From positions 64,381 through 128,380 of the forward strand of contig JAZDOC010000017.1 in assembly GCA_043798935.1 (NCBI GenBank): 64,000 bases of DNA, read 5' to 3'. The position numbers were made by a program, and so were the translations under genes. The stretch comes from Patescibacteria group bacterium (GTDB taxonomy: Bacteria > Patescibacteriota > Patescibacteriia > UBA9570 > JAHJKD01). Under the pieces are notes generated by a model that was not told the DNA's origin, made no database searches, and saw only the letters and a program-made list of their open reading frames with translations. Shown here one piece after another: positions 19,936-59,118 of this stretch (position 1 is the stretch's first letter; each line of letters begins with the position of its first letter).

Positions 19936-19980
19936 TTAAATGTGATATAATAAATTAGTCTTTATTAGCTTATTTAATGA

Positions 19981-34409: not shown

Positions 34410-37157
34410 ATGAGAAATTTTTTAGCCAAATTAAAAAAAATATTTATTACAAAGCCGATTTATGCCTTATTCGCTGTTTCTATTATTAGCATCGGCTTAA
34501 TTTTTCCCATATCATCATGGGCTCTGGATCCGGTTGCTTGGGTGGCTGATAGCATAACAGTTGATTTGGCTCGAATTTTAGTTTGGCTGATGTACATGCT
34601 TTTTATTTTTATTGCTGGCCAGCTCGGAACTTGGCTTACTGGCATGATGGTGTGGGCTTCCGGGTTTACGGGTTTTACAAATATCAGCGTGGTCACTGAA
34701 ACTTGGATGGTGGTTAGAGATTTATGTAATCTGCTTTTTATTGTCATGTTATTAATCATTGCATTTGCTACCATACTGCAGATTGAATCCTACTCATACA
34801 AAAAATTACTGCCAAAATTAATAATTGTGGTATTACTTATAAATTTCAGCCAGATGATTTGCGGTCTTGCGGTAGACGCGGCCCAGGTGGTAATGCTTAC
34901 TTTTGTAAATGCTTATAGCGGAGCCGCTAAACAAGGTTTTTATCAATTATTCCAGCTAAAAGATCTAGTAGATTTAGGATGGGATAAAGAAATAGATGCC
35001 GTCAGTACAGTTGCCGGCGCAAATGGCAAGAAAAATTGGCAGAACATGGATTATTTGCTAGCCGTATTTGCTTCGGGCGTAATGCTTACGCTAATCTGCG
35101 TAATCATGATAACAATATTTTTAACTTTAGTTGCCAGAATCGTCTTTATTTGGACGCTTACTATATTGTCTCCATTAGCTTTTGTCGCTTCAATTCTTCC
35201 TATTACTCAAAAATATTATCAGCGTTGGCTGTCTATGTTTGGTCGGTATATTGCGGTTGGTCCACTGCTGGCTTTTTTTGTCTGGTTGGCTTTATTTGTT
35301 GTGGTTAAAGCTGGGGATAGCGGTATATCTAGTCAACTAACTATACCTGGCTCCGGGCTTGTGGACGGTCCTAGTAACCTGACTGTAACTAAAGCGCTTG
35401 AGCCGGATGTTTTTATTAATTTTACCATTGGCTGCATGATGCTAATGATTGGCATTAAACTCGCGCAGGAAATGTCCTCGGAAATTAGCGGCATGGTCAG
35501 TAAAATTGCCGACATGCCGAAAAATGCCGCCAAGTGGTATGCCACCCGGCCGTATGCTTTGGGTAGATGGGGTGTTGGAAAAGCTTGGGGCGGTGTCAAA
35601 AAAGAAGCATTGGCTCGGGCCTCTTTATTGAATTCTCAAATATATGCTAAAACCGGTATTCAACTCAATCCGGCAAAGCGTTTGGAAGGAAAGCTTCGCG
35701 AAATAAACGAGGAAACACACTTAAATGAAGTAAAAGGCGAAATAGGTGGATTAGATCATATTGGAAGAGGCGAAGGCATCAGAGGATGGGCGGGTGCGCC
35801 CGGTTCGTTTTGGCGTTATTCTGGTCCGTTAAAAATGTGGGGGCAAAAAGGCGATCAAAAAATGCAAGAAAAATTAGCTGTTAGAAAAAAAGAACTAGAA
35901 GAAAGTGAAAATTATAAAAAAAATGTTCAAAGCGCAGCTGACGCAAGAGATAGAGTGGTTAATGGACAAGAACCAGTTAAAACAACGGCTCAAAATAATC
36001 TGGAAACACTAGACAGAAAAGCACAGTTAAAAGCAATGATGGATAGCATGAAAAAACTCGATGGCAATATAGATCAAGAAAAAATTATTGGTGCTATTAA
36101 AAGTCTTGGTTTACAGGACTTATATATGAATGGCAATGCATTGAAAGATGACTTTTTATCTGATTTAGAGAATGTTGATACTGAAAGAGAAGAGCAAAGA
36201 ACAAGCATAAGAACTGCTGATGCAGAAATCGGAAAAGCTCATGAACAATACGAAAAGGCTATTGAAGCAGCCAAACCGCAAGAGTTAAAAGATATTAATA
36301 AACAGATGGAAGGACTTTCCTTTGTATTTGATCCACGTAAAATGAAATTGTTGCAAGAGCATACTACTAAAATGTCTGATGGTTATAAAACTATAAATGA
36401 TGGTGAAATAGTTGATATGTATCGTAGTTTAGTGAGAATGGGAAAACATAATGAAGCATTGGCCTTATATTATCATGCTGCTAAAGTGGGCCATGGTAAC
36501 GAAATATTGAAAGCAGAAAAATTGCCTGTTAACGGCGAAGGCTTAGACAAAATGGAAAAAAAGTTTAAAGATGCTGGTTTAGGTGAGCAATATGTAAGAA
36601 GTGTAATGAATATGGCTAGCCAAGCCGCTGAACATAACGGCCATAATGCAATTGCCAGATGGTATACTAGTGAACATGGCCAAATAAAGCGCATCAGCCA
36701 GGAAGAGCACGATTTAATTACTGCAATTGAAGCTAGTAAAGAAGGCATTAGAACCAACTTGAGCAATGGTAATCATATGCGTTGGGGCGAGTATGATGGT
36801 CAAAAGAATTGGTCAATGCAAAATGCAATGTTGCATATGTTAATTCGCGGCGTAGATAAAAATGTAGCTCATAGTATTGAACATGGTCATACGGTTATTG
36901 GAACAAATTTAGTTCATTCATTACGTAAAGAAATGGTAGAAACTGCCGCATTAATTGGTGCGGCAGAAAAAGAAGGCAATGGCCACGTTGTTAAAATTTT
37001 AACTGATATTATAGGAGCCGATAAACTTGCGCAAGTTAGGTCCACTCAGGGTGAAAAAATTGGACAATTAGTCCAAAGTAAGTTAGCAGCTGTTCATAGA
37101 ATAGATCATAGAATAACCCCAGACTCCTCGCATAGGTTTGGCGTTGGCATATCCTAG
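34410..37157 (+). CDS. Polytopic membrane protein of 915 aa, a candidate VirB6/TrbL-like T4SS channel component with a long hydrophilic coiled-coil C-terminal domain.
   Basis: About 8 predicted TM helices lie in the first ~350 aa, followed by ~550 aa that are hydrophilic and coiled-coil rich. The gene starts 10 nt after the giant gene. The assignment rests on topology, not sequence. Confidence 0.45.
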   Translation: MRNFLAKLKKIFITKPIYALFAVSIISIGLIFPISSWALDPVAWVADSITVDLARILVWLMYMLFIFIAGQLGTWLTGMMVWASGFTGFTNISVVTETWMVVRDLCNLLFIVMLLIIAFATILQIESYSYKKLLPKLIIVVLLINFSQMICGLAVDAAQVVMLTFVNAYSGAAKQGFYQLFQLKDLVDLGWDKEIDAVSTVAGANGKKNWQNMDYLLAVFASGVMLTLICVIMITIFLTLVARIVFIWTLTILSPLAFVASILPITQKYYQRWLSMFGRYIAVGPLLAFFVWLALFVVVKAGDSGISSQLTIPGSGLVDGPSNLTVTKALEPDVFINFTIGCMMLMIGIKLAQEMSSEISGMVSKIADMPKNAAKWYATRPYALGRWGVGKAWGGVKKEALARASLLNSQIYAKTGIQLNPAKRLEGKLREINEETHLNEVKGEIGGLDHIGRGEGIRGWAGAPGSFWRYSGPLKMWGQKGDQKMQEKLAVRKKELEESENYKKNVQSAADARDRVVNGQEPVKTTAQNNLETLDRKAQLKAMMDSMKKLDGNIDQEKIIGAIKSLGLQDLYMNGNALKDDFLSDLENVDTEREEQRTSIRTADAEIGKAHEQYEKAIEAAKPQELKDINKQMEGLSFVFDPRKMKLLQEHTTKMSDGYKTINDGEIVDMYRSLVRMGKHNEALALYYHAAKVGHGNEILKAEKLPVNGEGLDKMEKKFKDAGLGEQYVRSVMNMASQAAEHNGHNAIARWYTSEHGQIKRISQEEHDLITAIEASKEGIRTNLSNGNHMRWGEYDGQKNWSMQNAMLHMLIRGVDKNVAHSIEHGHTVIGTNLVHSLRKEMVETAALIGAAEKEGNGHVVKILTDIIGADKLAQVRSTQGEKIGQLVQSKLAAVHRIDHRITPDSSHRFGVGIS

Positions 37158-37174
37158 AATTAATATAAATTTTT

Positions 37175-39046
37175 ATGGCATATTATAATCAACAATATAA
37201 AGATGTAGATTTAACCAGTAGTGAACAAGTACGTAAATATTTACGCGATAATGAAACTTACCTTAAAGAAATGGATGCGGCCATGTGCTTGCAGGCTGAT
37301 ATTTTTTTAAACCGTTATTTTAAAGAGAAGCCAAATTTTGAAAAAGAATATCCGCATGAATATGCTAGCTTAAATGAATTTATAATAGATTGTCGATGGG
37401 TTTCATTGCCGGCAATTAATCAAAAAGAGGTGCTGGATTTATTTACTAATAATATTAATAGCGCTTGGAGTTTGTTTGCTCGATACGATTTTTATATCGA
37501 GGATACAGATTTTTTGGATCAAAAAAGATTGATCGAAAAAAATTTAATGAATTTTATTTCCGGTATTTTTAGTTTTAAAGACCAAGATGCTTTTAAAAAT
37601 AAACTGCAAGACGCTTTGCGTCAGAGTGAACAATTAATTACTATCGAGCCGATTATAGATGGACAATTAAGAATAAAACCAACTTTGGCTCATTGGTTCG
37701 ATCTTTATTTTGAAGCCGTAGGCGTCGGAGCGGCCAATCAATTAAAGATTGCGCAGTTTTATGCCAAAGACAAAAATTTTCAAAAATTATCAGATTCGGA
37801 AAAAGCGAAAATGAAAATGATTTTTCATATTTATAATCAAATGCGTTTTTCCTCGCAAGATTTTATTCATGCGCCCATCAAAGAATATATGGTGAACGAT
37901 GAGGGTGTAATAGGTGTTTGGGAAAACGGCGTTTTTACGCCTTTTCCGTTTGTAGATAATAAACCTAAAAAAATTAATAAAAATCAAGACGATATGTACA
38001 ATGGAGTCCCATCATATAAACCAACCAATGAACCGTTAAGCGTCACCAAAGATATTTTTGGCGATGTCGACGCCAAAGAAATTGAAGATCATAGCCATTC
38101 CGGTTTGCGCAAACAAGCGCCGGTTGATAAAGACGCAATTATTAAATCTATTAAAGAGCAATTTCATCTAACTTTTTCCAGTTCTGAATCCGAAACCAGA
38201 TTTAATAATTTAACCGCCACCTTCGTTCTTGGCATTAGAGACGCCATGGAATATAAAGCCATGCTTACTCGTCCGGCCGATGTGGGTGGGCTTGATTATC
38301 GAATTGAAACAGCCGAAGCCATTACCGATGCCATTAAAAAATTATTAGGCGATAGCTTGCCTCAATCTGCCAGTTCGGTTGCTATGCCCCAGATAACTCC
38401 GACAGTTAAATCAGCGCCAACACCAGAACCAGCCCCTACGCGTCCTTCAATGCCAGCAATGCCCGCATTAACTCCATCATTAGAGCCCGATAAAAAGCCA
38501 CAGCTAAATTTAGCACAGGCTCAGGCCATGATGGATCAAGCCAAACAAATTGCCGCCACCATGAAAAAACCAGAGCCTGTTCAAGTAGAGACAGAGAAAA
38601 AAACTGAAGCCCCGATTGCTAAGCCGGTTTTAGAAACCAGTCAGGCCATACCGCAAGTGCGTCGCTTGGAAACCAATAAACCAATTGTTCAAGATATTAA
38701 AAAGCCCATTGTTAAACCAGTGCTCATGGGTCCGCAGGAAGAACTTGGAACTTTAGATCTTTCCAAATTTAGAAAATTAGCAGAAAATTCCGTGGAAGCA
38801 GCAGAAAAGATTAAGCATAAAATTGAATTATTAGAAGAACAATCTTTTGTTAGTAAATCGCAAGGGATTTTAGCTTTTAAAAATTCACCGCTTAACGCAA
38901 TTTACTTGCGTATCGGAAACACCAGTATCGATGAAGGGCGCTCGGTGCAAGAAGTAATTAATTCAATGACTGTGGCCGGTGAAAAAGTTTTAACCATGGA
39001 AGAGTTCGACGCCATTGCCGACTTAAATAAAAAAATAAGATATTAG
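37175..39046 (+). CDS. Hypothetical soluble protein of 623 aa with a Pro-rich linker.
   Basis: It has no TM segment and no NTPase motifs. A PTPEPAPTRPSMPAMPALTPS linker separates two domains. It sits in the T4SS-like operon. Confidence 0.5.
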   Translation: MAYYNQQYKDVDLTSSEQVRKYLRDNETYLKEMDAAMCLQADIFLNRYFKEKPNFEKEYPHEYASLNEFIIDCRWVSLPAINQKEVLDLFTNNINSAWSLFARYDFYIEDTDFLDQKRLIEKNLMNFISGIFSFKDQDAFKNKLQDALRQSEQLITIEPIIDGQLRIKPTLAHWFDLYFEAVGVGAANQLKIAQFYAKDKNFQKLSDSEKAKMKMIFHIYNQMRFSSQDFIHAPIKEYMVNDEGVIGVWENGVFTPFPFVDNKPKKINKNQDDMYNGVPSYKPTNEPLSVTKDIFGDVDAKEIEDHSHSGLRKQAPVDKDAIIKSIKEQFHLTFSSSESETRFNNLTATFVLGIRDAMEYKAMLTRPADVGGLDYRIETAEAITDAIKKLLGDSLPQSASSVAMPQITPTVKSAPTPEPAPTRPSMPAMPALTPSLEPDKKPQLNLAQAQAMMDQAKQIAATMKKPEPVQVETEKKTEAPIAKPVLETSQAIPQVRRLETNKPIVQDIKKPIVKPVLMGPQEELGTLDLSKFRKLAENSVEAAEKIKHKIELLEEQSFVSKSQGILAFKNSPLNAIYLRIGNTSIDEGRSVQEVINSMTVAGEKVLTMEEFDAIADLNKKIRY

Positions 39047-39055
39047 ATCTATTGT

Positions 39056-39523
39056 ATGCAAATGAATTTTGTGGTGCCACAATTTATTGAGGTCGAGAGT
39101 AAAGTAATCGGTCCTATTTCGATTCGTCAATTTATTATTTTATTGGTCACGGCCGGTTTTCTGTGGCTCTTTTGGACCATTCTAACATTTTGGTTTGCGG
39201 CTATTGTCGATATATTCTGTTTGGCCGTGGGCGGTACTTTTGCTTTTGTAAAAATCAACAGCCAACCTTTTCATATTTTTGCTTTGTGTTATGTGCAAAC
39301 CATGCGGTCGCCAGCTTTAAAAGTTTGGCAACGCGAACGTAATTTCATACTTAAAAAAATAGAGAAAAAAGCTAAACCCACAGTTGCGCCGGCTTACAAA
39401 GCGGTTCCAACACAATCGCGCCTAACTGAATTATCGCTTCTAGTCGATACAGGCGGTGTTTATAAGCCTGAGGAATTGCAAGATCAAGTTCAACAAAAAT
39501 TAAATTCACAATCTAACAAATAA
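39056..39523 (+). CDS. PrgI/VirB3-like small membrane protein.
   Basis: 155 aa with two TM helices, followed by the FAFVKINSQPFHIFALCYV motif that resembles the Gram-positive T4SS PrgI family. It sits directly upstream of VirB4, as in prgI-prgJ. Confidence 0.5.
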   Translation: MQMNFVVPQFIEVESKVIGPISIRQFIILLVTAGFLWLFWTILTFWFAAIVDIFCLAVGGTFAFVKINSQPFHIFALCYVQTMRSPALKVWQRERNFILKKIEKKAKPTVAPAYKAVPTQSRLTELSLLVDTGGVYKPEELQDQVQQKLNSQSNK

Positions 39524-39527
39524 AAAA

Positions 39528-40223
39528 ATGTCTTCGTCAGCTAAAACAGAAATGCAACATAAAACAAAACAAATTCCTTCAACGCAAAAATATTTACCAA
39601 TTGCGGAGATTAAAGACGACCTCGTGGTTTTAAAAGATGGCACCTTGCGCCAGGTGTTGATGGTGTCTTCCATTAACTTTGCTTTAAAAAACGAAGATGA
39701 ACAGCAGGCTATTATTAATGGCTATGTTCAGTTTTTAAATACTTTAGATTATCCCATTGAAATTGTTATTCAATCGCGTAATTTAAACATTGATGCTTAT
39801 ATCAATAAATTAAAAAAACTCGCTAAAGTGCAAACCAACGAACTGCTGAAAATTCAAACCATCGAGTATACCAATTATATTCAACAAATGGTAGAATTAT
39901 CTCAGATCATGGAAAAAAGATTTTTTATTGTTGTACCGTATTCGCCATATTCCAATAAACCAAAAAGTTTCTGGACTCGATTGCAAGAAGTTTTATCTCC
40001 CGGCAGCGTAATTAAATTAAATGAAGAAAAATTTAATAAGTTTAAAGAAGAATTAATTCGTCGTACTTCCATTGTGGCCAGCGGATTAACTTCAATTGGT
40101 TTAAAAGTCGCTCCGCTTGATACCCAGGGTTTAATAGAATTGTATTACCAAGCTTATAATCCGTCGCGGGGCAAGCCAAAAATTCTACCCGATATTAATC
40201 AATTGAAAATAGAAGAAAAATAA
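39528..40223 (+). CDS. VirB4/PrgJ-family T4SS ATPase, N-terminal domain fragment (split gene).
   Basis: 231 aa. The segment DDLVVLKDGTLRQVLMVSSINFALKNEDEQQAIINGYVQFLNTLDYPIEIVIQSRN matches the conserved N-terminus of Gram-positive VirB4 homologs. Its stop TAA (40221-40223) overlaps the next ATG (40223-40225). Confidence 0.65.
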   Translation: MSSSAKTEMQHKTKQIPSTQKYLPIAEIKDDLVVLKDGTLRQVLMVSSINFALKNEDEQQAIINGYVQFLNTLDYPIEIVIQSRNLNIDAYINKLKKLAKVQTNELLKIQTIEYTNYIQQMVELSQIMEKRFFIVVPYSPYSNKPKSFWTRLQEVLSPGSVIKLNEEKFNKFKEELIRRTSIVASGLTSIGLKVAPLDTQGLIELYYQAYNPSRGKPKILPDINQLKIEEK

Positions 40224-42118
40224 TGATTGATTTAAGAGATTCAAAACTACAAGCTCAGAAAAAATTACCGCTGGTCGATGAATCAACCAAAGAACAGCGC
40301 GAACAAGCCCGAGCCCGACAAATAGCCAAAGATCAAGAGGCTAAAGATTTAATTACCGCCAAAAACATTTATGAAAGTGGCGTCACTTACGTATTAGATT
40401 TAATTTCACCGGCCGCTTTAAAAGCCGAACCGCGTTATATAGATTTAGGCGGTAAATATTGCTCTACCATGTTTGTGGTTTCTTACCCGCGTCATATTAA
40501 TGTTGGCTGGTTTGCGCCCATCATTAATTTGAATTTATCGCTCGACATTGCCATGTATTTTTATCCGGTGAAATCAAACATTATTTTAAAACAATTGCGC
40601 AATAAAGTTGGTTCGCTGGAAGCTGAATTAATTTCTGATTCGGAAAAAAGAGCACCGCGTGATCCGGTTAAAGAAACCGCTTTGCGCGATATCGAAGGTT
40701 TGCGCGATAGTTTAACCCAGGGAACCGAAAAGTTTTTTCAATTCGCTTTGTACATTACAATTTATGCGGACGAAAAAAAAGAGCTGGAAGATTTAATGGA
40801 AAAAATGGATTCCATGTTTGGCTCGAAATTAGTGACGGCTAAACGTATTTTTTATCAGGCCGAACAAGGTTTTAATTCCACCCTCCCTTTAGGCATCGAT
40901 GAAATTCAAGTTTATTTCAACATGAATTCTTCACCGTGCGCTTCATCCTTTCCGTTTATTTCTTCGGAATTAACATCAGATAACGGTATTTTATACGGCG
41001 TTAATCGTCATAATAATAGTTTAATATTATTCGATCGTTTCAGTTTACAAAATGCCAACTCTGTGGTTTTCGCTACTTCGGGCGCCGGTAAAAGTTATAC
41101 CATTAAATTGGAAGTTTTGCGTAGTTTGATGATGGGAACCGATGTTATTATTATCGATCCGGAAAATGAATACAAGCATTTAGCCGACGCTGTTGGCGGA
41201 ACTTATATTAATATCTCTTTAAACTCGGATGCTAAAATTAACCCGTTTGATTTACCGCGTCCGGTTGGTGGCGCCGATAAACCGGCCGATATTATTAGAA
41301 CAGCCGTAATTACTTTAAAAGGTTTATTGCGTTTGATGCTGGGAAAAATTAGTGATGCCGAAGATTCTATTATGGACAGAGCTTTGATTGAAACTTACGC
41401 TAAAAAAGATATTACGGCTGATACGGATTTAAGCTTAGGCGTGGAACCGCCAATCATGGCCGACTTTCAGAATATTTTGGAAGGTTTTGAAGGAACGGAA
41501 AATTTAGTTATCAGGTTAAAGAAATTTACCGAGGGTACTTTTTCCGGATTATTCAACAGTCCCACAAACATTGATATGAAAAATCAGCTAGTCACTTTTT
41601 CCGTGCGTGATCTGGAAGACGAATTAAGACCAATCGCTGTTTACAATATTGTCACTTATATTTGGAACGTTGTACGCTCTAAATTAAAACAACGCATGTT
41701 GATTATCGATGAAGCTTGGTGGCTAATGCAGAGCGAAGACAGCGCTAAATTTATTTTTGCCTTGGTAAAACGTTGCCGAAAGTATTATCTGGGTGTCACT
41801 ACAATTACTCAAGACGTAAACGACTTTTTACTTTCTCCTTATGGCAGAGCAATTGTTACCAATTCGGCCATGCAGATTTTATTAAAACAGTCGCCGGCCG
41901 CGATCGACAACATCGCCAAAGTATTTATGTTAACCGAAGGCGAGAAATATTTATTGCTAGAGGGTAATGTGGGCGAAGGCATATTCTTTGCAGGCGAACG
42001 GCACGTAGCCATTAAAGTTGTGGCCTCGCAAACCGAAGATCAAATTGTCACATCCGACCCGCGGCAATTACTGGAAATTGAAGAGTCTAAAAAGGAATTC
42101 GCGGCTCAAAATTCTTAA
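40223..42118 (+). CDS. VirB4/TrbE/PrgJ-family type IV secretion ATPase, C-terminal ATPase portion.
   Basis: 631 aa. It has Walker A VVFATSGAGKSYTI and the VirB4-typical Walker B MLIIDEAWWLM (DEAW), plus C-terminal conserved blocks. Confidence 0.85.
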   Translation: MIDLRDSKLQAQKKLPLVDESTKEQREQARARQIAKDQEAKDLITAKNIYESGVTYVLDLISPAALKAEPRYIDLGGKYCSTMFVVSYPRHINVGWFAPIINLNLSLDIAMYFYPVKSNIILKQLRNKVGSLEAELISDSEKRAPRDPVKETALRDIEGLRDSLTQGTEKFFQFALYITIYADEKKELEDLMEKMDSMFGSKLVTAKRIFYQAEQGFNSTLPLGIDEIQVYFNMNSSPCASSFPFISSELTSDNGILYGVNRHNNSLILFDRFSLQNANSVVFATSGAGKSYTIKLEVLRSLMMGTDVIIIDPENEYKHLADAVGGTYINISLNSDAKINPFDLPRPVGGADKPADIIRTAVITLKGLLRLMLGKISDAEDSIMDRALIETYAKKDITADTDLSLGVEPPIMADFQNILEGFEGTENLVIRLKKFTEGTFSGLFNSPTNIDMKNQLVTFSVRDLEDELRPIAVYNIVTYIWNVVRSKLKQRMLIIDEAWWLMQSEDSAKFIFALVKRCRKYYLGVTTITQDVNDFLLSPYGRAIVTNSAMQILLKQSPAAIDNIAKVFMLTEGEKYLLLEGNVGEGIFFAGERHVAIKVVASQTEDQIVTSDPRQLLEIEESKKEFAAQNS

Positions 42119-42141
42119 ATTCAATCATTAATATAATTTAT

Positions 42142-42774
42142 ATGTTTGCCCAAAAAAAATTCATTATAATCGTCACCGCTCTTTTAGCATTATTATTCAT
42201 TGGCTTTGGTGTAATTTTCTATATTTATCAAAATCATCAAACTGAAATTAAACCAGAAAACAGCAATACCAATATAGCTGTTAATAACACTAATAATCAA
42301 ATCGATAATCAGGGGAATATTATTATTGATGAAACAAATAACAATGCCAACAGCGCGTCGCCGGCTGAAAGCGAAACATTTGTGGCTACCCAAGCTAATC
42401 AAACAAATGCCATTTTAAAGCTGGCTAAAAATTTTGCTGAGCGCTTTGGAACATATTCCAACGAGAATAATTACGATAACATCAGAAATTTAAAAAATAT
42501 TTCCAGCACTGAAATGCAAGCCTGGCTGGAAACTTTAATTGATAATAATAGCAAGAAGCCAAATGAAGCGTTTAGTGCTGTGACCACTAAAGCTTTAACA
42601 GTTGATTTATTAAGTTTTGATGTTGGATCAAATATCGCCGAAGTAATGGTAAGCACTAGCCGTAGTGAAGAAGCAGAATTTTCCACTGAAAAGAAAACAT
42701 ACACTCAAAAAATAAAAATTGAAATAATCCAGGAAAATAATTCTTGGAAAATAAATCGCGCTTATTGGCAATAA
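42142..42774 (+). CDS. Bitopic membrane protein, possibly VirB8/TcpC-like (NTF2-like C-terminal domain). Speculative.
   Basis: It has an N-terminal TM (FIIIVTALLALLFIGFGVIFYIY), an N-rich linker and a ~120-aa alpha/beta C-terminal domain. Confidence 0.35.
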   Translation: MFAQKKFIIIVTALLALLFIGFGVIFYIYQNHQTEIKPENSNTNIAVNNTNNQIDNQGNIIIDETNNNANSASPAESETFVATQANQTNAILKLAKNFAERFGTYSNENNYDNIRNLKNISSTEMQAWLETLIDNNSKKPNEAFSAVTTKALTVDLLSFDVGSNIAEVMVSTSRSEEAEFSTEKKTYTQKIKIEIIQENNSWKINRAYWQ

Positions 42775-42782
42775 TTAAAATT

Positions 42783-43085
42783 ATGCCACAAACCATAAAT
42801 GATCAAAAAAACGAAATTGCTCAAACTTTATCGTTTATTTTAGAAAAAGCACCGGATTTAATATTGAAAAATGATCCGGATGTATTAAAATTTAATTTTG
42901 AAAAAGCCGTGCAAAAAGCCACTCAACTTTATTATTTAAATTTGTATCAAGTAAAAAATGTTGAAGTTGATGAACACATTAAAAAAGCCACTGAAGAAGA
43001 TATTATTAAGCAATATCAAGCCATGCTAGCTAATTTAATGATTACTTTTAAACAGGTGGAAGTTGAAAAAAAGCTTGAAAATTAA
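42783..43085 (+). CDS. Small hypothetical cytoplasmic protein.
   Basis: About 100 aa starting at MPQTIN, right after the upstream stop. The ORF track extends it to 42744, overlapping the previous gene. Confidence 0.4.
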   Translation: MPQTINDQKNEIAQTLSFILEKAPDLILKNDPDVLKFNFEKAVQKATQLYYLNLYQVKNVEVDEHIKKATEEDIIKQYQAMLANLMITFKQVEVEKKLEN

Positions 43086-43202
43086 TATAGCCCCGGGCTT
43101 TATGCTCGTGGGCGGTGAGAAAGAAACATCAATATTAATGCCAGTCCACGCCCATAAAAGGCGGGGCTAAAAAATTATAAAAATTGCAAAAAATAAATAA
43201 TC

Positions 43203-44471
43203 ATGAATAATCCAAGCTCACAAAATTTACAATCAGAAATGGGAGAGCAAATAAAAGATGCTGTTAAAAGTAATCCTAATTTAAGTGTGGGCGAGGCGAT
43301 TAGCGACTTGTGTCAGCATCCAAAATTTCAAAAATTATTATCAGATTCCGTCATGGCTTTACCGCTTCAATATATTGATGCTGATACATCAGCCGATGTA
43401 AAACGAGCCGGTGCTATGAAAGCCATGGTAGCCACCGCCGTTATGGCTGATGCTGTAGTTCAAGCGCAAAAAGAGCAAGAAATGCAGGATATAGCCTTAG
43501 AAGCTTTAATGGCTCATTTAATGTTGAATGGTTTAAATCCTGAACAAGCTGAAAGTTATGCCCGAAACGCCATGGGTCATCCGGCTACGGATTCTGCACC
43601 CGAGGAAGATCAGAAAGCAGATGAGCATGGTCAAAAACAAGCTCAAGATGCTCAAGCCGTCGCTTCAGATGCCGAAGGCGATGGAGAACAACCAGATGGC
43701 GAAACAGGTGAAGGCGAACCAGACACTCCCCAAGAAACCGTTGAGCCTGGCAAAGAAGATGAAGCCGCCAGAAAATTACAGGACGAAAAAAATAAAGATG
43801 CTCAAAAAAAAGAGGGTGAGCAAGAAGACGGAGATAAAAAAGAAGGCGAAAACCCTGAAGGTGAGGGAAAAGAAGACAAACAACCCGGCCAAGAAGCTGG
43901 TGAGGAACCAGGTGAAGACCAAACCGCTTCACCCGAACAAGAAACGGCCGAGCCGGAAGAATCAGAGGATCAGAATGCTGAGAATCAAGAAGGGGATGAA
44001 GGCCAAGAAGGTGAAAATCAAGGTGCGTCGCCGGAAGAACAATCTCCGGAAGGAGAGTCCCCGGAGGCTAAACCAGAAGAAGAGGCTGACAAAGGCCGTG
44101 AATTAGCTGAAGATAAAAAGGAAGATGAAGATAAAGAAAGTAATATTCCAAGTAAAGATGAATTAGCAAAAGCCGTTAATAAAATAAAAAAAGAAACCGA
44201 ATCAGCTCTAATTGAAGCGTTTCTCAGTGGCCTGCCTGAAAGTTTATTGTTGTTATTAATACCTTTTGTTCCGCCCATAAATATTCCTTTGGGAATTTTA
44301 GCAATTAAGTTTGGTTTTGATGGAAAAATAGATTTTGATATGCCATTGTTAGGAAAAATTAAATTGATGGATTTTGATGCGTTAGAACGTGCAATTATGA
44401 TCTCGTTTGGAGTGGCTTGTTTTTTGGAATATATCATTGGATTTGTATTGTTGCTTTATTTTTTTAATTAA
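43203..44471 (+). CDS. Extremely acidic, low-complexity (E/D/G/K/Q-rich) protein with a C-terminal membrane anchor.
   Basis: 422 aa. Residues ~120-330 are almost entirely E/D/K/G/Q/P repeats (EGDGEQPDGETGEGEPD...). The C-terminal ~80 aa carry two hydrophobic helices (LLLLLIPFVPPINIPLGILAIKF, ISFGVACFLEYIIGFVLLLYFF). The lysine-rich and other ORF-track entries overlapping this gene are out-of-frame low-complexity artefacts. Confidence 0.5.
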   Translation: MNNPSSQNLQSEMGEQIKDAVKSNPNLSVGEAISDLCQHPKFQKLLSDSVMALPLQYIDADTSADVKRAGAMKAMVATAVMADAVVQAQKEQEMQDIALEALMAHLMLNGLNPEQAESYARNAMGHPATDSAPEEDQKADEHGQKQAQDAQAVASDAEGDGEQPDGETGEGEPDTPQETVEPGKEDEAARKLQDEKNKDAQKKEGEQEDGDKKEGENPEGEGKEDKQPGQEAGEEPGEDQTASPEQETAEPEESEDQNAENQEGDEGQEGENQGASPEEQSPEGESPEAKPEEEADKGRELAEDKKEDEDKESNIPSKDELAKAVNKIKKETESALIEAFLSGLPESLLLLLIPFVPPINIPLGILAIKFGFDGKIDFDMPLLGKIKLMDFDALERAIMISFGVACFLEYIIGFVLLLYFFN

Positions 44472-44513
44472 GCTTAAAAGTAATTTGCTGAACGTCATAA
44501 AATATGGTATAGT

Positions 44514-45896
44514 ATGAACATGCTTTTAGCGAAAAATAAACATTTATTCATTAGGTTTCTAACAGCGCCTATTTTTTTAATTATACTAAATTTTATTCCG
44601 AAAAGTGCACAAGCTGAAGGCGAAAAGCAATATGTAAAAAATATTGGTTATTTATTAGAAGTTCCTATTCCTACAATATCCAGCGGTGGTGTTTCGCTCG
44701 TAAATAATATTGTTGAATATGTTCAACTGATTTATGAAGTGAGTATCTCTATAATTGCGCCATTAGCAGTAGTGGCTATTATCTATGGCGGTGTTAGAAT
44801 TGCCTCTTCAGCCGGAAATGAACAGTCTATTACATCTGGTAAACAAGTAATTATTTCAGCTATTATTGGTTTATTAATACCATTATTAAGCTATAGCGGT
44901 TTAAAATTAATAAATTCTCAATTAGTTGATTTGCAGAATATACAGGTTGAGAAAATAGTTTACGAACCCGATACAGAACCAATTTATACTTTACCGGATT
45001 GCGGTCGTGATTCACGTTTTGAAGATTGCAAAGATACACTTTGCGGGGAAACTTGTTTTAACGAAGAATTAGGCTTAAGTTGTCGCGGTGAAAAAGCAAA
45101 TTCGGCTAACGCTACGGCAAGTTGTTCAGGAAACATGACAGTTATTGGGTCAGGCCCTGGTCAGTGCGAGTGTTACCCATACGCTACAAGCATAACCGAG
45201 GGAAAAATAAAATATAAGATGCAGAGTGCAGATTGCGTCGATCCGGCAATAATAGCAGTTCAAACTTATGATAAATTATATAAAGACAGAAAAGATCGTG
45301 AATTTATGGTGAATGCAATGACTGCGCTTTCCATTTGTGGTAATAATTTTGAACCTTTCTACAAACAAAGCGATATCATGGCAATTGACGAATATGTTGA
45401 TCTTGTATTTGGCTGGTCACATATGGAATTAATGAATAATATGCTAAATCGAAATATGGCAGCGTCTACTTTGTTTTATATTACTTTAAATAAATCATGG
45501 CATTCTCAAACTAACCATGTATATAGTGATCTTTTTGGATTTTGCGCACAAAGGAACAATTATGTTTTTAAAAGTCATAGCCAGTTAGAAACAACAACAA
45601 ATTGTGAATTTAATCTAAATTGCGGAATTCATCCTAGTTATAACGATGCTAGTGATATTTTTGGTTTATTTTGTATGCCTAACGATTGGTCTCAGCTTTT
45701 ACTTAACGGACACGAATATAAAGCTAAAGACATGTCGTCTTTTAATGCTAGCCAGTTTAAAAAAGCACTTTTTTGGGGTGAATATTTGGTCGGTAAATAT
45801 TATAACGGTACTGCTACAAGTTATGATAATGAGTTTATCATGACTCAAGAAATTGCCAATAAATTGGATAATAATCAATACGAAAGTTTTCACTAA
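44514..45896 (+). CDS. VirB2/TrbC pilin-like N-terminal domain fused to a ~300-aa Cys-rich C-terminal domain.
   Basis: It has a signal peptide and two hydrophobic helices separated by a short loop (IAPLAVVAIIYGGVRIASSAGNEQSITSGKQVIISAIIGLLIPLL). It is paralogous to residues ~60-150 of the 47910-49301 protein. The C-terminal domain has about 14 Cys and no recognised motif. Confidence 0.5.
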   Translation: MNMLLAKNKHLFIRFLTAPIFLIILNFIPKSAQAEGEKQYVKNIGYLLEVPIPTISSGGVSLVNNIVEYVQLIYEVSISIIAPLAVVAIIYGGVRIASSAGNEQSITSGKQVIISAIIGLLIPLLSYSGLKLINSQLVDLQNIQVEKIVYEPDTEPIYTLPDCGRDSRFEDCKDTLCGETCFNEELGLSCRGEKANSANATASCSGNMTVIGSGPGQCECYPYATSITEGKIKYKMQSADCVDPAIIAVQTYDKLYKDRKDREFMVNAMTALSICGNNFEPFYKQSDIMAIDEYVDLVFGWSHMELMNNMLNRNMAASTLFYITLNKSWHSQTNHVYSDLFGFCAQRNNYVFKSHSQLETTTNCEFNLNCGIHPSYNDASDIFGLFCMPNDWSQLLLNGHEYKAKDMSSFNASQFKKALFWGEYLVGKYYNGTATSYDNEFIMTQEIANKLDNNQYESFH

Positions 45897-45900
45897 AATT

Positions 45901-47136
45901 ATGCAACTAACAGATTTACAAAAGAAAATATTATACTCAGCTCTATTAATAATAGTGGCAATTGGCATGGCGATTATTATTTATATAGTGTTTTTTAAAG
46001 CGCCTAAAGAAGAATTAATTAATGTAAATGGCGAGCTTGTGCCTGAAAGCATATTTCCGGAAATAAACGCTAATGTTAATCAGGATATTGATGTTAGTAA
46101 TACTAATGCTTTTAATGGCGTGCCCACAATCGATTCGGTAGCGCGTGGATCCAACACTTTAACCGACACATTAACCGATGAAAGTGCCTCTGATATGACG
46201 CTTTCAGCCAATGGCAAGGACGTCCAATATTACAACAGCGAAGACGGAAAGTTTTACCGCATCAACGAGCTGGGTGAAAAAATTGCCATGAGCGATGAAA
46301 TTTTTAAGGGTGTAAATAATGTCACTTGGTCTAACAGCAGCCAATCCGCTGTATTAGAGTTTGATGATGATTATAATTTATTTTACGATTTTGAAAAAAA
46401 GAAGCAATATACTGTTCCTAAAGAAATGGAACAATTTACCTTCTCACCGACTGATGACCAGATTGGTTTTAAATATATGGCCATCGATAAAGAAGATCGC
46501 TGGTTGGGGGTAATGGATCCGGACGGTTCAAATCCTCGGGGCTTGGAAAAACTTGGCGATAATGCCGATAAAATTGAAGTAAATTGGTCGCCATCCGGAA
46601 AAGCCGTTGGAACTTTTAATGAATATATCGACGGTAATCGTCAGCGTGTAATTCCGATTGGTCTAAATAGCGAGAATTTTAAACAAATGACGGTTGAAGG
46701 CAGAGGTTTTGAATATGCTTGGTCGCCAACCGGAAAACAAATGCTTTATAATGTTTTTGGTTCATATTCAGATTATCAGCCGACTTTATGGATAGTTGAT
46801 GCTGAAGGTGAACAAATCGGCGAGAATCGCACGGCTTTAGAAATGAACACGTGGGTAGACAAATGTACTTTTTCTAGCAAAACTCAGCTTTATTGCGCTG
46901 TACCGCAAACCTTGCCGACCGGTGCCGGCTATGCGCGTGATGTGGCTGACAATATTCCGGATAATATTTATAAAATAGATTTAGCAACCGGTAAAAAAGA
47001 ACTAATGGCTATTCCCATTAATGCTTTTGGTACCGAACAGTATACCATTAATAATATGCAGGTCTCTGATGACGGTGCTACTTTGTTTTTTACTGATGTT
47101 CAACAAAACAATATTCATAAATTAAAATTAAAATAA
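45901..47136 (+). CDS. Membrane-anchored beta-propeller protein (TolB/PD40-like repeats).
   Basis: It has an N-terminal TM (LYSALLIIVAIGMAIIIYIVFF) and repeated WSPSGK/WSPTGK PD40-like motifs. I place the start at MQLTDL (45901); the ORF track begins at 45853. Confidence 0.5.
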   Translation: MQLTDLQKKILYSALLIIVAIGMAIIIYIVFFKAPKEELINVNGELVPESIFPEINANVNQDIDVSNTNAFNGVPTIDSVARGSNTLTDTLTDESASDMTLSANGKDVQYYNSEDGKFYRINELGEKIAMSDEIFKGVNNVTWSNSSQSAVLEFDDDYNLFYDFEKKKQYTVPKEMEQFTFSPTDDQIGFKYMAIDKEDRWLGVMDPDGSNPRGLEKLGDNADKIEVNWSPSGKAVGTFNEYIDGNRQRVIPIGLNSENFKQMTVEGRGFEYAWSPTGKQMLYNVFGSYSDYQPTLWIVDAEGEQIGENRTALEMNTWVDKCTFSSKTQLYCAVPQTLPTGAGYARDVADNIPDNIYKIDLATGKKELMAIPINAFGTEQYTINNMQVSDDGATLFFTDVQQNNIHKLKLK

Positions 47137-47137
47137 C

Positions 47138-47917
47138 ATGAAAAAAAACAATTTCCATTTATCAGATACTACAGTTTTAATTATTGTTGCTGTAATTGGT
47201 TTATTACTGCTTGTATTTTTTTTATTATTTGGATCAGCACTTGTTCAAGGCATCTTTGCTTTACCGGTTGAAAGTAATAATACCAATACTAATGCATCAC
47301 AAATTGCCAGCTCTACTAATAACGGCGGTTTGGAATTAGGCTATGATCCATTGATTACTATGGTGCCGGAAGATCTCCAGACGCTTGGCAAAAACAGCAA
47401 AGTGTTCATCTCCGATGTTGATCCTTATCTGGGTTCGTCGCAGGCTAAAGCCGTGGTGGTTGTATGGTCGCGCTTCGATAACGAGCAAGCCAAGGAAAGT
47501 GCTGATATTCTTAAGCAAATTTCTAATGAATATGGCGATAAAATTGTAATTATATGGAAAGATTTTATTAATCCTGATAATAATAACGAAATTGGCTATT
47601 CGGCTGCGCTGGCCGCTCATTGTGCTAATGAGCAAGATTTGTTTTGGCCGTATCATGATTTATTATTCGATAATTATGATCATTTAGACGCAAATACTAT
47701 AAGCGAATTAGCGACCACGGTTAATCTAGATATGAATATTTTTAATGAATGTATCGACAATCAATCTACTAAAGCGATTGTTGAAAGCAACTATTATCGC
47801 GGCCTTAGCGCCGGCATTACTAATGCGCCGGCAGTGTTTGTAAATGATGCCATGATAGACGATGCTCTTAATATTGATACTCTTAAAAATGCAATTAATG
47901 ATAAAATAAATGAATAA
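47138..47917 (+). CDS. DsbA-like thioredoxin-fold protein lacking the CxxC active site (predicted catalytically inactive).
   Basis: It has an N-terminal TM and retains the DsbA-family motif AAHCANEQDLFWPYHDLLF. Where the family places the CPxC active site it has VVVWSRFDNEQ, and the protein contains no CxxC. Confidence 0.55.
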   Translation: MKKNNFHLSDTTVLIIVAVIGLLLLVFFLLFGSALVQGIFALPVESNNTNTNASQIASSTNNGGLELGYDPLITMVPEDLQTLGKNSKVFISDVDPYLGSSQAKAVVVVWSRFDNEQAKESADILKQISNEYGDKIVIIWKDFINPDNNNEIGYSAALAAHCANEQDLFWPYHDLLFDNYDHLDANTISELATTVNLDMNIFNECIDNQSTKAIVESNYYRGLSAGITNAPAVFVNDAMIDDALNIDTLKNAINDKINE

Positions 47918-49301
47918 TAAAAAAATAATATCATATTTTTTTGCGCTATATTTTGTAATCAGCGCCTTTATCCCCCTTATTTCTTTAGCCGGGTCCGCAA
48001 CAGCAACAACCCCAACAGCTGCAAAGAGCACGGTACCAGCCGCTTGCACGGATTTTGCGGATAAGGAAGTGGAATGGACTCAGCAAGAAGATATCATGTA
48101 TTTTTTAGAAGTCCCATTATTTGGCAAGCTTTATGTCACTAATTGGAACGATTATCTGGAAACCGTTTATAATTTTTCCATTACTTTAATTCCTATTTTT
48201 TCTTTAGCCGCTATGTTTTACGGCGGTTTTCGCTGGGCCGCATCGGCCGGCAATGAGCAAGCTATTACTAGTGCTAAAAATGTAATTACTTCAGCTATTA
48301 TTGGATTATTAATTGCTTTACTAGGCTATGGTATGGCTGGGCGCATAAATTCGGCATTAGTAGATAATCACGATGTTAGAATATATAAAATTCCAATTGC
48401 CAATCCTTATGATAGTAGCTGTGAACTTCCGCCGGAAAGTAGAGTTGATCTGGCTATTAGTGCAGTAGCGCCTCATCAATTTGCTTCTTCAACTATTAGC
48501 TCTGGTGGATGTCCAAATCTTAAAGTAGCTATCGAAAAAGCTTTGGTTAATTTAAGTGCACTGGCAGTTACAAAAGGCGCGCCTATTGTATTGAGTGGAT
48601 CGGGTTGGCGTTCAGCTGAAAGGCAATGGTATTTCTTTGCCTGTTATTGCAATGCTCAAATTACCGGTGAATGTAAAAGCGGTGCATGCAATGGATGTCA
48701 ATATTGTGAATCTAATAATTGTAATTTAGCGTCTAAGCCGTGTGATGGCGATTCATCTCGGCATCCGCGCGGTTTAGCCGTAGATGTTAAAATTGTTGGA
48801 ACAATTTTAGAAGGGCATGGCACAACCGGTTATAATTGTCTTAGAGGAAGCCATCCAACCGATAAAAGTTTTGGTTTTTCGCTAAGTGGAAAAGATAAAG
48901 CAATTTGGGATGCATTAAAACCAGAAGAACAAAAATCCCTATGTGAGTGGCAAAAAGACTTAAAAGAAGCCATGACTGGCGGTCCGGGAACGCCTTATGA
49001 CACTAACCCTACCGGTTTAAAAGGAATAAAGTCAGAGTGGTGGCATTTTCAATTATCATCGACAACGGCTTGTTTCGAACTCGGTACTTATGGGCTATCT
49101 TGTCCTTGCAAAGATTCAGCTCCTACAAATTGTCCAACCGGCCAACATGCAGTATGTAAGTTGAAAGATAACTCGTATTCTCAAAGCGAAGGTTGGCAAT
49201 GTATGGATTCTTCAATTGGAAGTGAGAAGAAAACAATAACAAAAATGATTAGCGGCAATGGTGTCGCCACTCTTTATAATTTTAGCTGCATAGTAAATTA
49301 G
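47910..49301 (+). CDS. VirB2/TrbC pilin-like N-terminal domain fused to a Cys-rich linker and a LAS-family (M15/VanY-like) zinc peptidase domain.
   Basis: The N-terminal segment YFLEVPLF...AAMFYGGFRWAASAGNEQAITSAKNVITSAIIGLLIALLGYG is paralogous to the 44514 gene. The C-terminal domain has SRHPRGLAVDV (SxHxxGxAxD, nt ~48753) and SEWWHFQ (ExxH, nt ~49030), the zinc-ligand signatures of D-Ala-D-Ala carboxypeptidase / LAS peptidases. Confidence 0.55.
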   Translation: MNNKKIISYFFALYFVISAFIPLISLAGSATATTPTAAKSTVPAACTDFADKEVEWTQQEDIMYFLEVPLFGKLYVTNWNDYLETVYNFSITLIPIFSLAAMFYGGFRWAASAGNEQAITSAKNVITSAIIGLLIALLGYGMAGRINSALVDNHDVRIYKIPIANPYDSSCELPPESRVDLAISAVAPHQFASSTISSGGCPNLKVAIEKALVNLSALAVTKGAPIVLSGSGWRSAERQWYFFACYCNAQITGECKSGACNGCQYCESNNCNLASKPCDGDSSRHPRGLAVDVKIVGTILEGHGTTGYNCLRGSHPTDKSFGFSLSGKDKAIWDALKPEEQKSLCEWQKDLKEAMTGGPGTPYDTNPTGLKGIKSEWWHFQLSSTTACFELGTYGLSCPCKDSAPTNCPTGQHAVCKLKDNSYSQSEGWQCMDSSIGSEKKTITKMISGNGVATLYNFSCIVN

Positions 49302-54997: not shown

Positions 54998-55636
54998 CTA
55001 CCCCTTGGCAACCGTAGCAGCCCAAATTTCCGCTATTTGGAGGGGTTTTAAAGCCTGAATAACCTGATTAATAGTATTTCCGGTTGTATATACATCATCA
55101 ATAATTAACACTCTTTTTCCAACTAATGATAAATTTGGATTAATTATACTAAAAGCCTGCTTAGTATTGGCAAACCGCTCGGCTTCGCTTAATTTAGCCT
55201 GAGCGTGCGTATATTTTTGACGATAAACAATATCGGTTCGAAGCTGGCCAACTTTAGCCATAGCCAGTTTAGTAGCAATGAGCTCGGCCTGATTAAACCC
55301 CCGTTCCCGTAAGCGCTTTCTATGTAAAGGCACGGGAATAATATAATCAAACTTTTCATGGATAACCGATATCAATTCAACGGCTAATATATCGGCGATT
55401 TCTTGGCTATAACCGTATTTATATTGATGAATTATTTTTTGGATAATTTTATTGGCATACGGCGCCAAGTAAAATAAACCGGCTAGATCGCTATTTTTCG
55501 GAAAATAGATTTTTTGCGGTTGAAGCATTTGTTGTTTGCATTTTTCACACAACCAAACATCGTAAACGTTTTCACAGTTTACACATTGAATCGGAAATAA
55601 TAAATCCTTAAGCCAATTAATTATTTGTTTTATCAT
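54998..55636 (-). CDS. comFC: ComF-family protein (ComFC-like: double zinc ribbon plus phosphoribosyltransferase fold).
   Basis: 212 aa. It has the N-terminal zinc ribbon CVNCENVYDVWLCEKCKQQ and the PRTase motif VLIIDDVYTTGNT. Confidence 0.8.
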   Translation of the reverse strand: MIKQIINWLKDLLFPIQCVNCENVYDVWLCEKCKQQMLQPQKIYFPKNSDLAGLFYLAPYANKIIQKIIHQYKYGYSQEIADILAVELISVIHEKFDYIIPVPLHRKRLRERGFNQAELIATKLAMAKVGQLRTDIVYRQKYTHAQAKLSEAERFANTKQAFSIINPNLSLVGKRVLIIDDVYTTGNTINQVIQALKPLQIAEIWAATVAKG

Positions 55637-58329: not shown

Positions 58330-59118
58330 TTATGTGTTTTTCTGTTTAAGGTTATTATATAAAACATAAGCGTAAATGGTAGTAATTGGCAGAGATAAAA
58401 TTATAGCAATCGGGTCGCCGTAGTTAGGGATAAATTTTAATAAAAAAGAAACAGTATAAATTACAGAATATAAAATGGCTAAGCGGATTAATATTGGCCA
58501 AAAATAATGTTTGCTTAAACGGAAACTTTTACGGATGGCCGACCAAGCGTCAGCTGATTGATCCACTATAAAATATGGAGCGAATAATAAAAATACCGAC
58601 ATTAACATATACGACAGTGTGGTAATATAAGATAAAAATGGAAAGATAGCATTTACCCACTCGGCGTTTATCAGGCCTAAAAGCGCAGTTAAAACTGTAA
58701 TAATAATATAATCAGCCAGAGTAACGATGCCGGCAATTAAAATAGTAAGCAAAGCTAAAATAATAAACGTTCCAAAAAATTCTAGTGATTGATAGATAAG
58801 GCGTGATATTTTTATATCAGCTTGCTTGATAGTTAATAATATCAAAGAGATAGTGCCCCAAAATTCAGCTATGATGATTATTAATAACGCAATGATTAAA
58901 AAATACACAAATCCGGATGAGGCATTAAAAAGCTCGGCCGGGTTATCTAGAAAAGAAGCCGAGAAGACGAACGATCCAAAAATTGCCCAACCAAAAGCAT
59001 AAATAATAAAAATTGGCACCGCGCTTACCAATATGAATTTGATAAAGTGATGAATTAATATTTTCCAAGCTTCATACCAGGTATCGGTGACGCTTAGCAT
59101 TTCGTAATGTTTTGACAT
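58330..59118 (-). CDS. Hypothetical polytopic membrane protein.
   Basis: 262 aa with about 6 predicted TM helices. No motif recognised. Confidence 0.45.
   Translation of the reverse strand: MSKHYEMLSVTDTWYEAWKILIHHFIKFILVSAVPIFIIYAFGWAIFGSFVFSASFLDNPAELFNASSGFVYFLIIALLIIIIAEFWGTISLILLTIKQADIKISRLIYQSLEFFGTFIILALLTILIAGIVTLADYIIITVLTALLGLINAEWVNAIFPFLSYITTLSYMLMSVFLLFAPYFIVDQSADAWSAIRKSFRLSKHYFWPILIRLAILYSVIYTVSFLLKFIPNYGDPIAIILSLPITTIYAYVLYNNLKQKNT

Follow-up and report, generated by a model that had tools for sequence, protein, structure and literature searches.

The 64-kb stretch of DNA analysed here (the window) covers part of contig JAZDOC010000017.1, which is 129,136 bp in length and belongs to a metagenome-assembled genome of the Patescibacteria. 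Between positions 34410 and 49301 it carries an unbroken run of plus-strand open reading frames (ORFs) that very probably encodes a type IV secretion system (T4SS) of the Patescibacteria clade. According to the annotation of the source record, from which gene count and gene starts are taken, the run comprises 12 genes (locus tags V1898_03600-03655), all with intact ORFs. An earlier note on this DNA had described eleven tightly spaced plus-strand genes. These ORFs lie where it had placed them, but its count was one short, as an ORF of 100 amino acids (aa) at 42783-43085 had been missed. It had further let the module span 34410-49301, and while the cluster itself stands, this boundary does not, since the gene of a giant protein, which ends 9 nucleotides (nt) 5' of the VirB6-like gene, by its conserved position belongs to the locus as well. 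The genes are the following.

20772-34400, plus strand: giant secreted or surface protein of 4542 aa, recognised from its ORF, its composition and a Pfam VWA match
34410-37157, plus strand: extended VirB6-like polytopic membrane protein of 915 aa, with a transmembrane (TM) domain at aa ~1-355 followed by a hydrophilic C-terminal extension of ~560 aa
37175-39046, plus strand: soluble protein of 623 aa with no family assigned, syntenic between the VirB6-like and PrgI genes
39056-39523, plus strand: PrgI/VirB3-like protein with two TM segments (Pfam PrgI), annotated by NCBI as 'PrgI family protein'
39528-40223, plus strand: TrsD-like protein of 231 aa, a detached VirB4 N-terminal domain (NCBIfam, hhalign)
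40223-42118, plus strand: VirB4 ATPase of 631 aa (NCBIfam conju_CD1110, Pfam P-loop_TraG, PDB 4AG5)
42142-42774, plus strand: bitopic VirB8-like protein with an N-terminal TM helix, an Asn-rich linker and an NTF2-like domain
42783-43085, plus strand: soluble orphan ORF of 100 aa (V1898_03630 of the source annotation), between the VirB8-like and acidic genes
43203-44471, plus strand: acidic low-complexity membrane protein (23% D+E) with two to three C-terminal TM helices
44514-45896, plus strand: VirB2-like T4SS_pilin domain fused to a C-terminal domain of 323 aa with 14 Cys (Pfam; hidden Markov model, HMM, of the family)
45901-47136, plus strand: membrane-anchored PD40-type (TolB-like) beta-propeller, with an N-terminal TM segment and PD40 matches in its orthologs
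47138-47917, plus strand: membrane-anchored DsbA/thioredoxin-fold protein without CXXC (Pfam Thioredoxin_4, DSBA)
47910-49301, plus strand: fusion of a VirB2-like T4SS_pilin domain with a Cys-rich zinc peptidase of M15/VanY type (LAS; sub-threshold Pfam matches, intact motifs)

Counted from the giant gene on, the gaps at the successive junctions are 9, 17, 9, 4, -1, 23, 8, 117, 42, 4, 1 and -8 nt. The start of the propeller gene is the ATG at 45901 in the source annotation, and the overlapping TTG at 45853 is the start that the earlier reader had used. Scans for promoters and terminators gave results that were indistinguishable from those obtained with shuffles.

For comparison, 80 loci were chosen around VirB4 proteins that are 68-78% identical to that of the window, with one genome per GTDB species, and the window proteins were compared by BLAST with the six-frame ORFs of these loci, many of which are cut by contig ends. 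The groups named among them are Patescibacteria, Kerfeldbacteria, Falkowbacteria, Magasanikbacteria or Parcubacteria, and genomes whose records read Kerfeldbacteria or Falkowbacteria are here termed ABY1-type. The gene order of the window recurs in these species-level loci, namely giant protein, VirB6-like, 623-aa protein, PrgI, TrsD-like, VirB4, VirB8-like, a variable membrane protein, pilin fusion, propeller, DsbA, pilin fusion and RecG. The median identity to the window protein is 72% for VirB4, 53% for the TrsD-like protein, 43% for PrgI and 39% for the propeller, and it falls to about 30% for the VirB6-like and VirB8-like proteins, the 623-aa protein, the pilin fusions, DsbA and the giant protein. 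The cytoplasmic motor is thus strongly constrained while the exposed parts diverge fast.

The ATPase at 40223-42118 contains the Walker A motif GAGKSY and the Walker B motif DEAW, as had been noted before, and its proposed identity as VirB4 is confirmed. It scores 353.5 bits against the NCBIfam model conju_CD1110 ('VirB4-like conjugal transfer ATPase, CD1110 family'; cutoff 325), aligning with model positions 172-734, and matches Pfam P-loop_TraG with 1e-29. The profile of its family retrieved the C-terminal domain of a Thermoanaerobacter VirB4 (4AG5) from PDB with an E-value of 8e-58, as well as TrwK of R388 (1e-4). The best 120 of 8,000 VirB4 homologs (E<=1e-20) are 71-87% identical to the window protein; for most of these no source is named, and those with a name all stem from the Patescibacteria or the Candidate Phyla Radiation.

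Directly ahead of it lies the one gene that the earlier note had left unnamed when it gave ten functions for eleven genes. This 231-aa ORF, whose stop codon overlaps the virB4 start (ATGA), is present in all 80 loci. It matches three NCBIfam models below their curated cutoffs, namely VirB4_plasma, the VirB4 of Mycoplasma integrated conjugative elements (ICEs), at positions 96-265 (E 7e-11), the CD1110 VirB4 at its extreme N-terminus (positions 2-119, E 1.8e-6) and TrsD (E 3.4e-6), and in hhalign its family aligns with TrsD of pSK41 (probability 88%, E 2.8e-6). On the basis of these VirB4 N-terminal and TrsD matches, we take it for a TrsD-like protein that represents a separately encoded N-terminal domain of VirB4. 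A direct hhalign comparison of the TrsD-like family with the window VirB4 family gave no signal (probability 0.2%), which is no surprise if each of them corresponds to a different part of the ancestral protein. A PDB profile search with the TrsD-like family returned no meaningful match.

The remaining parts of a membrane platform are also encoded. The PrgI/VirB3 assignment of 39056-39523 was borne out by a Pfam PrgI match of 33 bits (gathering cutoff 27), and the gene is present in 76 of the 80 loci. The VirB6-like protein, which had been described as polytopic with a long extension, indeed has 7-8 TM segments within its first ~355 residues; the window copy itself has no Pfam match, and TrbL/VirB6 families are matched by 5 of 34 syntenic orthologs (best 4.6e-5). 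At E<=1e-3 there are 18,239 representative relatives of its membrane domain, mostly 800-1600 aa long. The hydrophilic extension is little conserved within the family, and in this it is like that of the reviewed 'extended VirB6' proteins (PMC12857230). An hhalign comparison of this family with TrsL of pSK41 was weak (probability 10.6%), and PDB profile searches with the VirB6-like and VirB8-like families found no meaningful match.

As for the proposed VirB8-like candidate, its bitopic topology and extracytoplasmic NTF2-like domain are those of the VirB8 type. A search with the single sequence found only two homologs, so that an alignment was needed as query, and one homolog found in this way carries a precomputed PF04335 match. 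The 623-aa protein, present in 73 of the 80 loci, has no TM segment, an acidic motif, a Pro-rich linker and a conserved C-terminal domain of ~120 aa, and neither Pfam (family members included) nor NCBIfam nor PDB gave a match for it. Neither the 100-aa ORF nor the acidic protein at 43203-44471 has a sequence homolog in the 80 loci by jackhmmer. In most loci, though not in L001, L002 and L004, the place between the VirB8-like gene and the pilin genes is taken by analogs of the acidic protein with 180-440 aa, a soluble N-terminus and C-terminal TM segments. The cytoplasmic-membrane platform is thus complete with PrgI/VirB3, a split VirB4/TrsD-like motor, an extended VirB6 and a bitopic VirB8-like protein. 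On the extracytoplasmic side there are two pilin-domain proteins with Cys-rich C-terminal domains, a PD40 propeller and a DsbA-fold protein.

The giant protein encoded upstream has an N-terminal signal/TM segment and 170 Cys; D+E make up 16.8% of its residues and K+R only 5%, and Pfam places a VWA domain at aa 3092-3292 (E 3.8e-8). In 19 loci whose flank reaches far enough, a homolog of it immediately precedes the VirB6-like gene, and as judged from this shared position in related loci the giant gene is part of the conserved locus. The database protein P0190 (5129 aa) is 52% identical to it over a BLASTP alignment of ~2050 aa (at least 1,432 residues shown) and also contains a VirB6-like domain at 4126-4505. 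Directly 5' of the giant gene, a 259-aa ORF (19981-20760, plus strand) shows a weak match to bacterial TSP3 repeats. Ahead of this ORF, at 19922-19951, stands an 11/12 sigma-70-like site with an extended -10 TG, which could possibly be the operon start for the whole block of ~29 kb.

For the propeller, the TolB-like assignment of the earlier note is supported by 13 of 30 orthologs that match Pfam PD40 (best 3.8e-8). The window copy shows weak propeller matches only, and the PDB profile search with the family gave no meaningful match.

The neighbouring protein at 47138-47917 matches Pfam Thioredoxin_4 (3.9e-18) and DSBA (1.5e-9), has only two Cys and carries RFDNEQ at the aligned position of the CXXC motif. 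Its description as a DsbA-fold pseudoenzyme therefore holds for the fold and for the missing CXXC of the window copy. As a property of the whole system we rejected it, since CXXC is kept in 30 of 40 related DsbA-like sequences (38 locus copies plus two second copies) and its loss is limited to a few lineages. The locus DsbA has lost CXXC in the window genome and its closest relatives L001, L002 and L004, and, apparently independently of this lineage, in L010 and L014; the locus copy of L068 is also among those without it. A second DsbA with CPAC is encoded a few kb away in L010 and L014, and there is no second DsbA within the 64-kb window. In L019, L029 and L035, DsbA shows a shifted C-x7-C arrangement (C-D-L-[LF]-S-P-L-C). 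The Cys-rich partner proteins are retained in lineages whose DsbA has no CXXC.

These partner proteins include the two pilin fusions, in both of which the N-terminal part, made up of a signal peptide plus two TM helices, matches PF18895 (T4SS_pilin). The window scores of 24.9 bits (44514-45896) and 17.3 bits (47910-49301) stay below the cutoff of 26.6. The family is nevertheless the one proposed before, as all 52 pilin-family members in the related loci match T4SS_pilin (best 3.4e-12). A local HMM of the pilin domain, which matches 44514-45896 with 5e-28, finds only these two pilin-domain ORFs in the window, with lengths of 460 and 463 aa. As a side observation, the window pilins weakly match the model of a Mycoplasma ICE 'pilin-like conjugal transfer protein'.

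Behind the common N-terminal domain, the family diverges. The C-terminal domain of 44514-45896 is a BLAST singleton, and by BLAST the C-terminal domains of the 52 pilin proteins form at least 30 groups without links between them, with 3-24 Cys and mostly 8 or more. The recognisable ones are SLT, Peptidase_M15_4 (up to 5e-20), VanY, M15, C39-like, 3D and SLT_3. In 47910-49301 the matches to VanY, T4SS_pilin and Peptidase_M15 are all sub-threshold, with VanY and M15 being significant in other members of the pilin family. The zinc-ligand motifs SxHxxGxAxD and ExxH are intact (SRHPRGLAVD at 283, EWWHF at 376), in line with the LAS peptidase domain that had been claimed for this protein. This M15 site is kept in L002 and L004, and in four other lineages the final gene ahead of RecG has a GLMQ (SLT-type) motif instead; Pfam SLT is matched by five pilin-family members, although the scan does not tell which. 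The protein at 47910-49301 is probably the functional counterpart of VirB1. Elsewhere in the window, a gene at 13665-14927 on the minus strand encodes an M23 peptidase with two LysM domains, a combination that has been noted among VirB1-like homologs away from virB4 (PMC12102498).

One could speculate that the T4SS_pilin domain of ABY1-type Patescibacteria is less a plain pilus subunit than a conserved N-terminal carrier for hypervariable disulfide-rich modules. These might form a polymorphic, surface- or pilus-displayed wall-breaching set that works together with a giant VWA adhesin coupled to VirB6, an idea we put forward only tentatively. Taken one step further, the locus would encode a contact-dependent organelle for attack or feeding, in which the pilin-domain carriers show enzymatic modules that open the wall of the host while the giant VWA protein holds it. 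Such an organelle would agree with the many unlinked C-terminal groups behind one N-terminal domain, with the enzymatic families (SLT, M15, VanY, C39-like, 3D) among them, with the exchange of M15 for SLT-type sites at the same position, with extracytoplasmic parts that evolve much faster than VirB4, with a CXXC-bearing DsbA co-encoded in most lineages and with a giant protein that adjoins VirB6 and is fused to it in P0190. However, the hydrolases may just remodel the cell's own wall, as VirB1 does, and localisation, polymerisation and target wall are all putative. In addition, the hypervariability was gauged by BLAST among the 80 loci only, and in the window genome itself the DsbA has no CXXC. 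We therefore regard an attack organelle as conceivable but doubtful.

The chromosomal surroundings bear on the origin of the cluster. Upstream lie the housekeeping genes for LeuRS, TsaC/Sua5 and KsgA, and downstream follow RecG (convergent), a tRNA-Arg, two tRNA-Ser, a ComF-like phosphoribosyltransferase and ClpB/ClpC; the GC content is even across the region without a break. The Pfam scans of the window covered most ORFs of at least 120 aa (9732-10103, 10096-10572, 13216-13602 and 60762-61271, of 123-169 aa, were left out), and TrsK and Nes of pSK41 served as phmmer queries against all window ORFs of at least 40 aa and against the 80 related neighbourhoods. In these searches no VirD4, VirB11 or relaxase family was found in the window (oriT was not searched for), and no relaxase or coupling protein in the 80 neighbourhoods by phmmer; nor did the Pfam scans of the window reveal an integrase (repeats were not looked for). 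The absence of VirD4, VirB11 and relaxase that the earlier note had claimed thus stands for the window scans, but not as a conclusion from 64 kb that a coupling protein is missing. Given that the gene order is kept in 80 genomes and that the flanks are formed by housekeeping genes and RecG, the locus is, on synteny, a vertically inherited chromosomal locus and no mobile element, and the mobile-element reading was rejected on account of this conserved chromosomal synteny.

The same evidence speaks to the idea that the cluster is a decayed, non-functional ICE which has lost its relaxase and coupling protein. Its VirB4 does belong to the CD1110 conjugative family, the VirB3-TrsD-VirB4 order is that of the conjugative plasmid pSK41, and an IS200-like Y1 transposase ORF (15476-16042, plus strand; Pfam Y1_Tnp 1e-8) lies just upstream of leuS, 18 kb upstream of the cluster. 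Decay is, however, hard to reconcile with 12 intact ORFs, with VirB4 proteins that are 68-78% identical and a gene order kept across 80 species-level loci, with the lack of an integrase and of a GC break, with housekeeping flanks whose synteny is likewise conserved and with an orthologous system that is essential in Saccharibacteria (PMC10633639), and we consider it highly improbable. Further out in the window, four ORFs have no Pfam family at E<=0.01, namely 1781-5128 (plus strand, 1115 aa), 42-1430 (plus strand, 462 aa), 61358-63565 (plus strand, 735 aa) and 58330-59118 (minus strand, 262 aa), and these could be further lineage-specific surface proteins.

The flanks also raise the question whether the machine might import host or environmental DNA, for nucleotides or for recombination together with RecG and ComF, in a ComB-like fashion. 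RecG is directly downstream in the window and in 39 of the 80 loci, and the ComF-like phosphoribosyltransferase with its double zinc ribbon is encoded at 54998-55636 on the minus strand. In several loci of the type of L020, L043, L048, L050, L058-L062 and L077, where the pilin genes lie elsewhere on the opposite strand, the ComF-like gene comes next after that of the VirB8-like protein and is itself followed by the genes of a conserved ~165-aa protein and of RecG. An association of the ABY1 T4SS locus with recG, comF and radA has been reported (PMC12102498), and T4SS-mediated uptake has been raised with ComB of Helicobacter pylori as precedent (PMC11665869). Then again, RecG and ComF are on the opposite strand in the window and hence not co-transcribed with the cluster, no DNA-binding or -processing component was found in it, and its position next to a housekeeping helicase may reflect no more than neutral synteny. 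Moreover, in Southlakia epibionticum the T4SS is essential but comEC dispensable (PMC12857230, PMC10633639), which argues that the essential role is not exerted via the competence channel. Only the recG/comF neighbourhood points towards DNA, and weakly so, and from our point of view DNA uptake is an unlikely function.

We favour the view that the locus is a Patescibacteria-clade T4SS, derived from monoderm MPF_FATA conjugation machinery and showing the ABY1-type gene order, which most likely serves in host contact rather than conjugation. We prefer host contact to conjugation because there is no linked relaxase or coupling protein, because different species all carry the locus as a fixed part of the chromosome and because the Saccharibacterial ortholog is essential. 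The non-conjugative role in episymbionts that had been proposed (attachment, effector delivery or uptake) agrees with the published view (PMC10633639, PMC12102498, PMC12857230). In such a system, VirB4/TrsD would provide the energy to assemble VirB6, VirB8 and VirB3 into a channel through the single membrane. Sec would insert the pilin-domain proteins, which would afterwards polymerise or else remain at the channel as anchored proteins, in both cases displaying wall-cutting and other disulfide-rich modules outside the cell. DsbA would oxidise these Cys-rich proteins in most lineages. The propeller and the giant VWA protein could form an extracellular scaffold and adhesin, the giant protein being either the adhesin or a distal component, and the apparatus as a whole may work at the contact with the host cell in attachment or in the export or import of macromolecules.

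Several points weigh against this view. The role of the Patescibacteria T4SS has been called 'completely unknown' (PMC11665869), and the function that we predict for the locus is something we infer. The placement of the window VirB4 in the Patescibacteria clade follows from its nearest neighbours, and co-transcription of the cluster is read from gene spacing. The window copies of VirB6, the pilins, the M15 peptidase and the propeller score below Pfam thresholds, and their assignments come from orthologs, motifs and predicted structures. Polymerisation of pilins with C-terminal domains of 300 aa is putative, P0190 is either a true fusion of the giant and VirB6-like proteins or could be an artefact of gene calling or assembly, and a VirD4-like protein may be encoded elsewhere in the genome beyond the 64-kb window.

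Such loci deserve attention because the only species of the Patescibacteria that is genetically tractable cannot grow epibiotically without its T4SS. The window adds no new kind of system to this picture, but a clean, fully assigned example of the ABY1-type gene order with a structurally clear VirB8, a component reported missing in Saccharibacteria. Modest leads on what the machine touches and cuts come from the fusions of pilin domains with hydrolases, from the connection of the giant protein with VirB6 and from the DsbA active site, which was lost repeatedly.

Among known systems, the MPF_FATA group (Trs of pSK41/pGO1, Prg of pCF10, CD1110 of CTn2, Tcp of pCW3) resembles the window locus in several respects, and profile and structure tests confirm the Gram-positive-type (MPF_FATA-like) T4SS that the earlier note had proposed. 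The VirB4 passes the CD1110 cutoff, a TrbL/VirB6-type protein is present, the order TrsC(VirB3)-TrsD-TrsE(VirB4) of pSK41 equals that of the VirB3-like, TrsD-like and VirB4 genes, and the VirB8-like NTF2 protein resembles PrgL (pCF10) and TcpC (pCW3). Like these Gram-positive systems, the window locus has neither an outer-membrane core nor a VirB11. Unlike the conjugative members, its cluster contains no relaxase, VirD4-like coupling protein, topoisomerase or SSB and is not located on a plasmid or ICE, and its VirB6, with 915 aa, is an extended one. In place of a TM-SLT-CHAP protein, an M15 peptidase joined to a pilin domain serves as wall hydrolase, and the PrgB-type adhesin is replaced by the unrelated giant protein. 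On pSK41 (L081:25115-25432), a 'CagC family type IV secretion system protein' is annotated next to the VirB3-like gene. VirB2-like proteins may be less foreign to monoderm T4SSs than is often stated.

With ComB of H. pylori the window locus shares a T4SS without relaxase or coupling protein and a non-conjugative use. ComB is, however, a diderm VirB-type system with an outer-membrane core of ComB7/9/10, of which the Pfam and NCBIfam scans of the window found no homologs, and in contrast to ComB nothing at the window locus ties it to DNA. 'Extended VirB6' proteins have been reviewed, those of the Rickettsiales Rvh system included (PMC12857230), but the extension of the window VirB6 has no detectable homology to those of Rvh (MPF_FA) or to DotA.

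The closest likeness is with the T4SS of the Patescibacteria themselves, the composition of which is covered better by the literature than the earlier note had assumed (PMC10633639, PMC12102498). In a survey of 3,035 Patescibacteria genomes, VirB4 was found in 2,417, mostly as one clade nested in MPF_FATA (Quinonero-Coronel et al. 2025, Microb Genom, PMC12102498). TrsD is the commonest companion of virB4, near which PrgI, VirB6 and PF18895/VirB2-like pilins occur as well, and VirB8 homologs are almost confined to the class ABY1 (PMC12102498). Relaxases were present in only 103 of the surveyed genomes, and VirD4-like genes, although found in 2,918 genomes, were near virB4 in only 148 of 5,713 cases (PMC12102498). 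The window locus is likewise chromosomal, its nearest VirB4s are those of Patescibacteria, TrsD lies directly upstream of virB4, and PrgI/VirB3 and VirB6 are present. It further has PF18895 pilins by virB4, its cluster includes a peptidoglycan hydrolase, neither a relaxase nor a coupling protein lies nearby, and the context with recG, comF and ksgA is ABY1-type.

In S. epibionticum, an apparent T4SS is essential for epibiotic growth (Wang et al. 2023, Cell, PMC10633639), and its locus (SEML1_0006-0019) has a Gram-positive-like composition with predicted pilins and no recognisable coupling or relaxase proteins (PMC10633639). The Saccharibacterial locus contains an array of pilin genes, whereas that of the window has only two pilin-domain genes, both long Cys-rich fusions, and the window locus encodes a clear VirB8-fold protein where none was found in S. 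epibionticum. The PD40 propeller, the DsbA-fold protein and the giant VWA protein are conserved in window-type loci and are not discussed in the Patescibacteria T4SS surveys that we compared. Overall, the system of the window is already published as a kind, and the locus fits the published description of the Patescibacteria T4SS in every respect tested.

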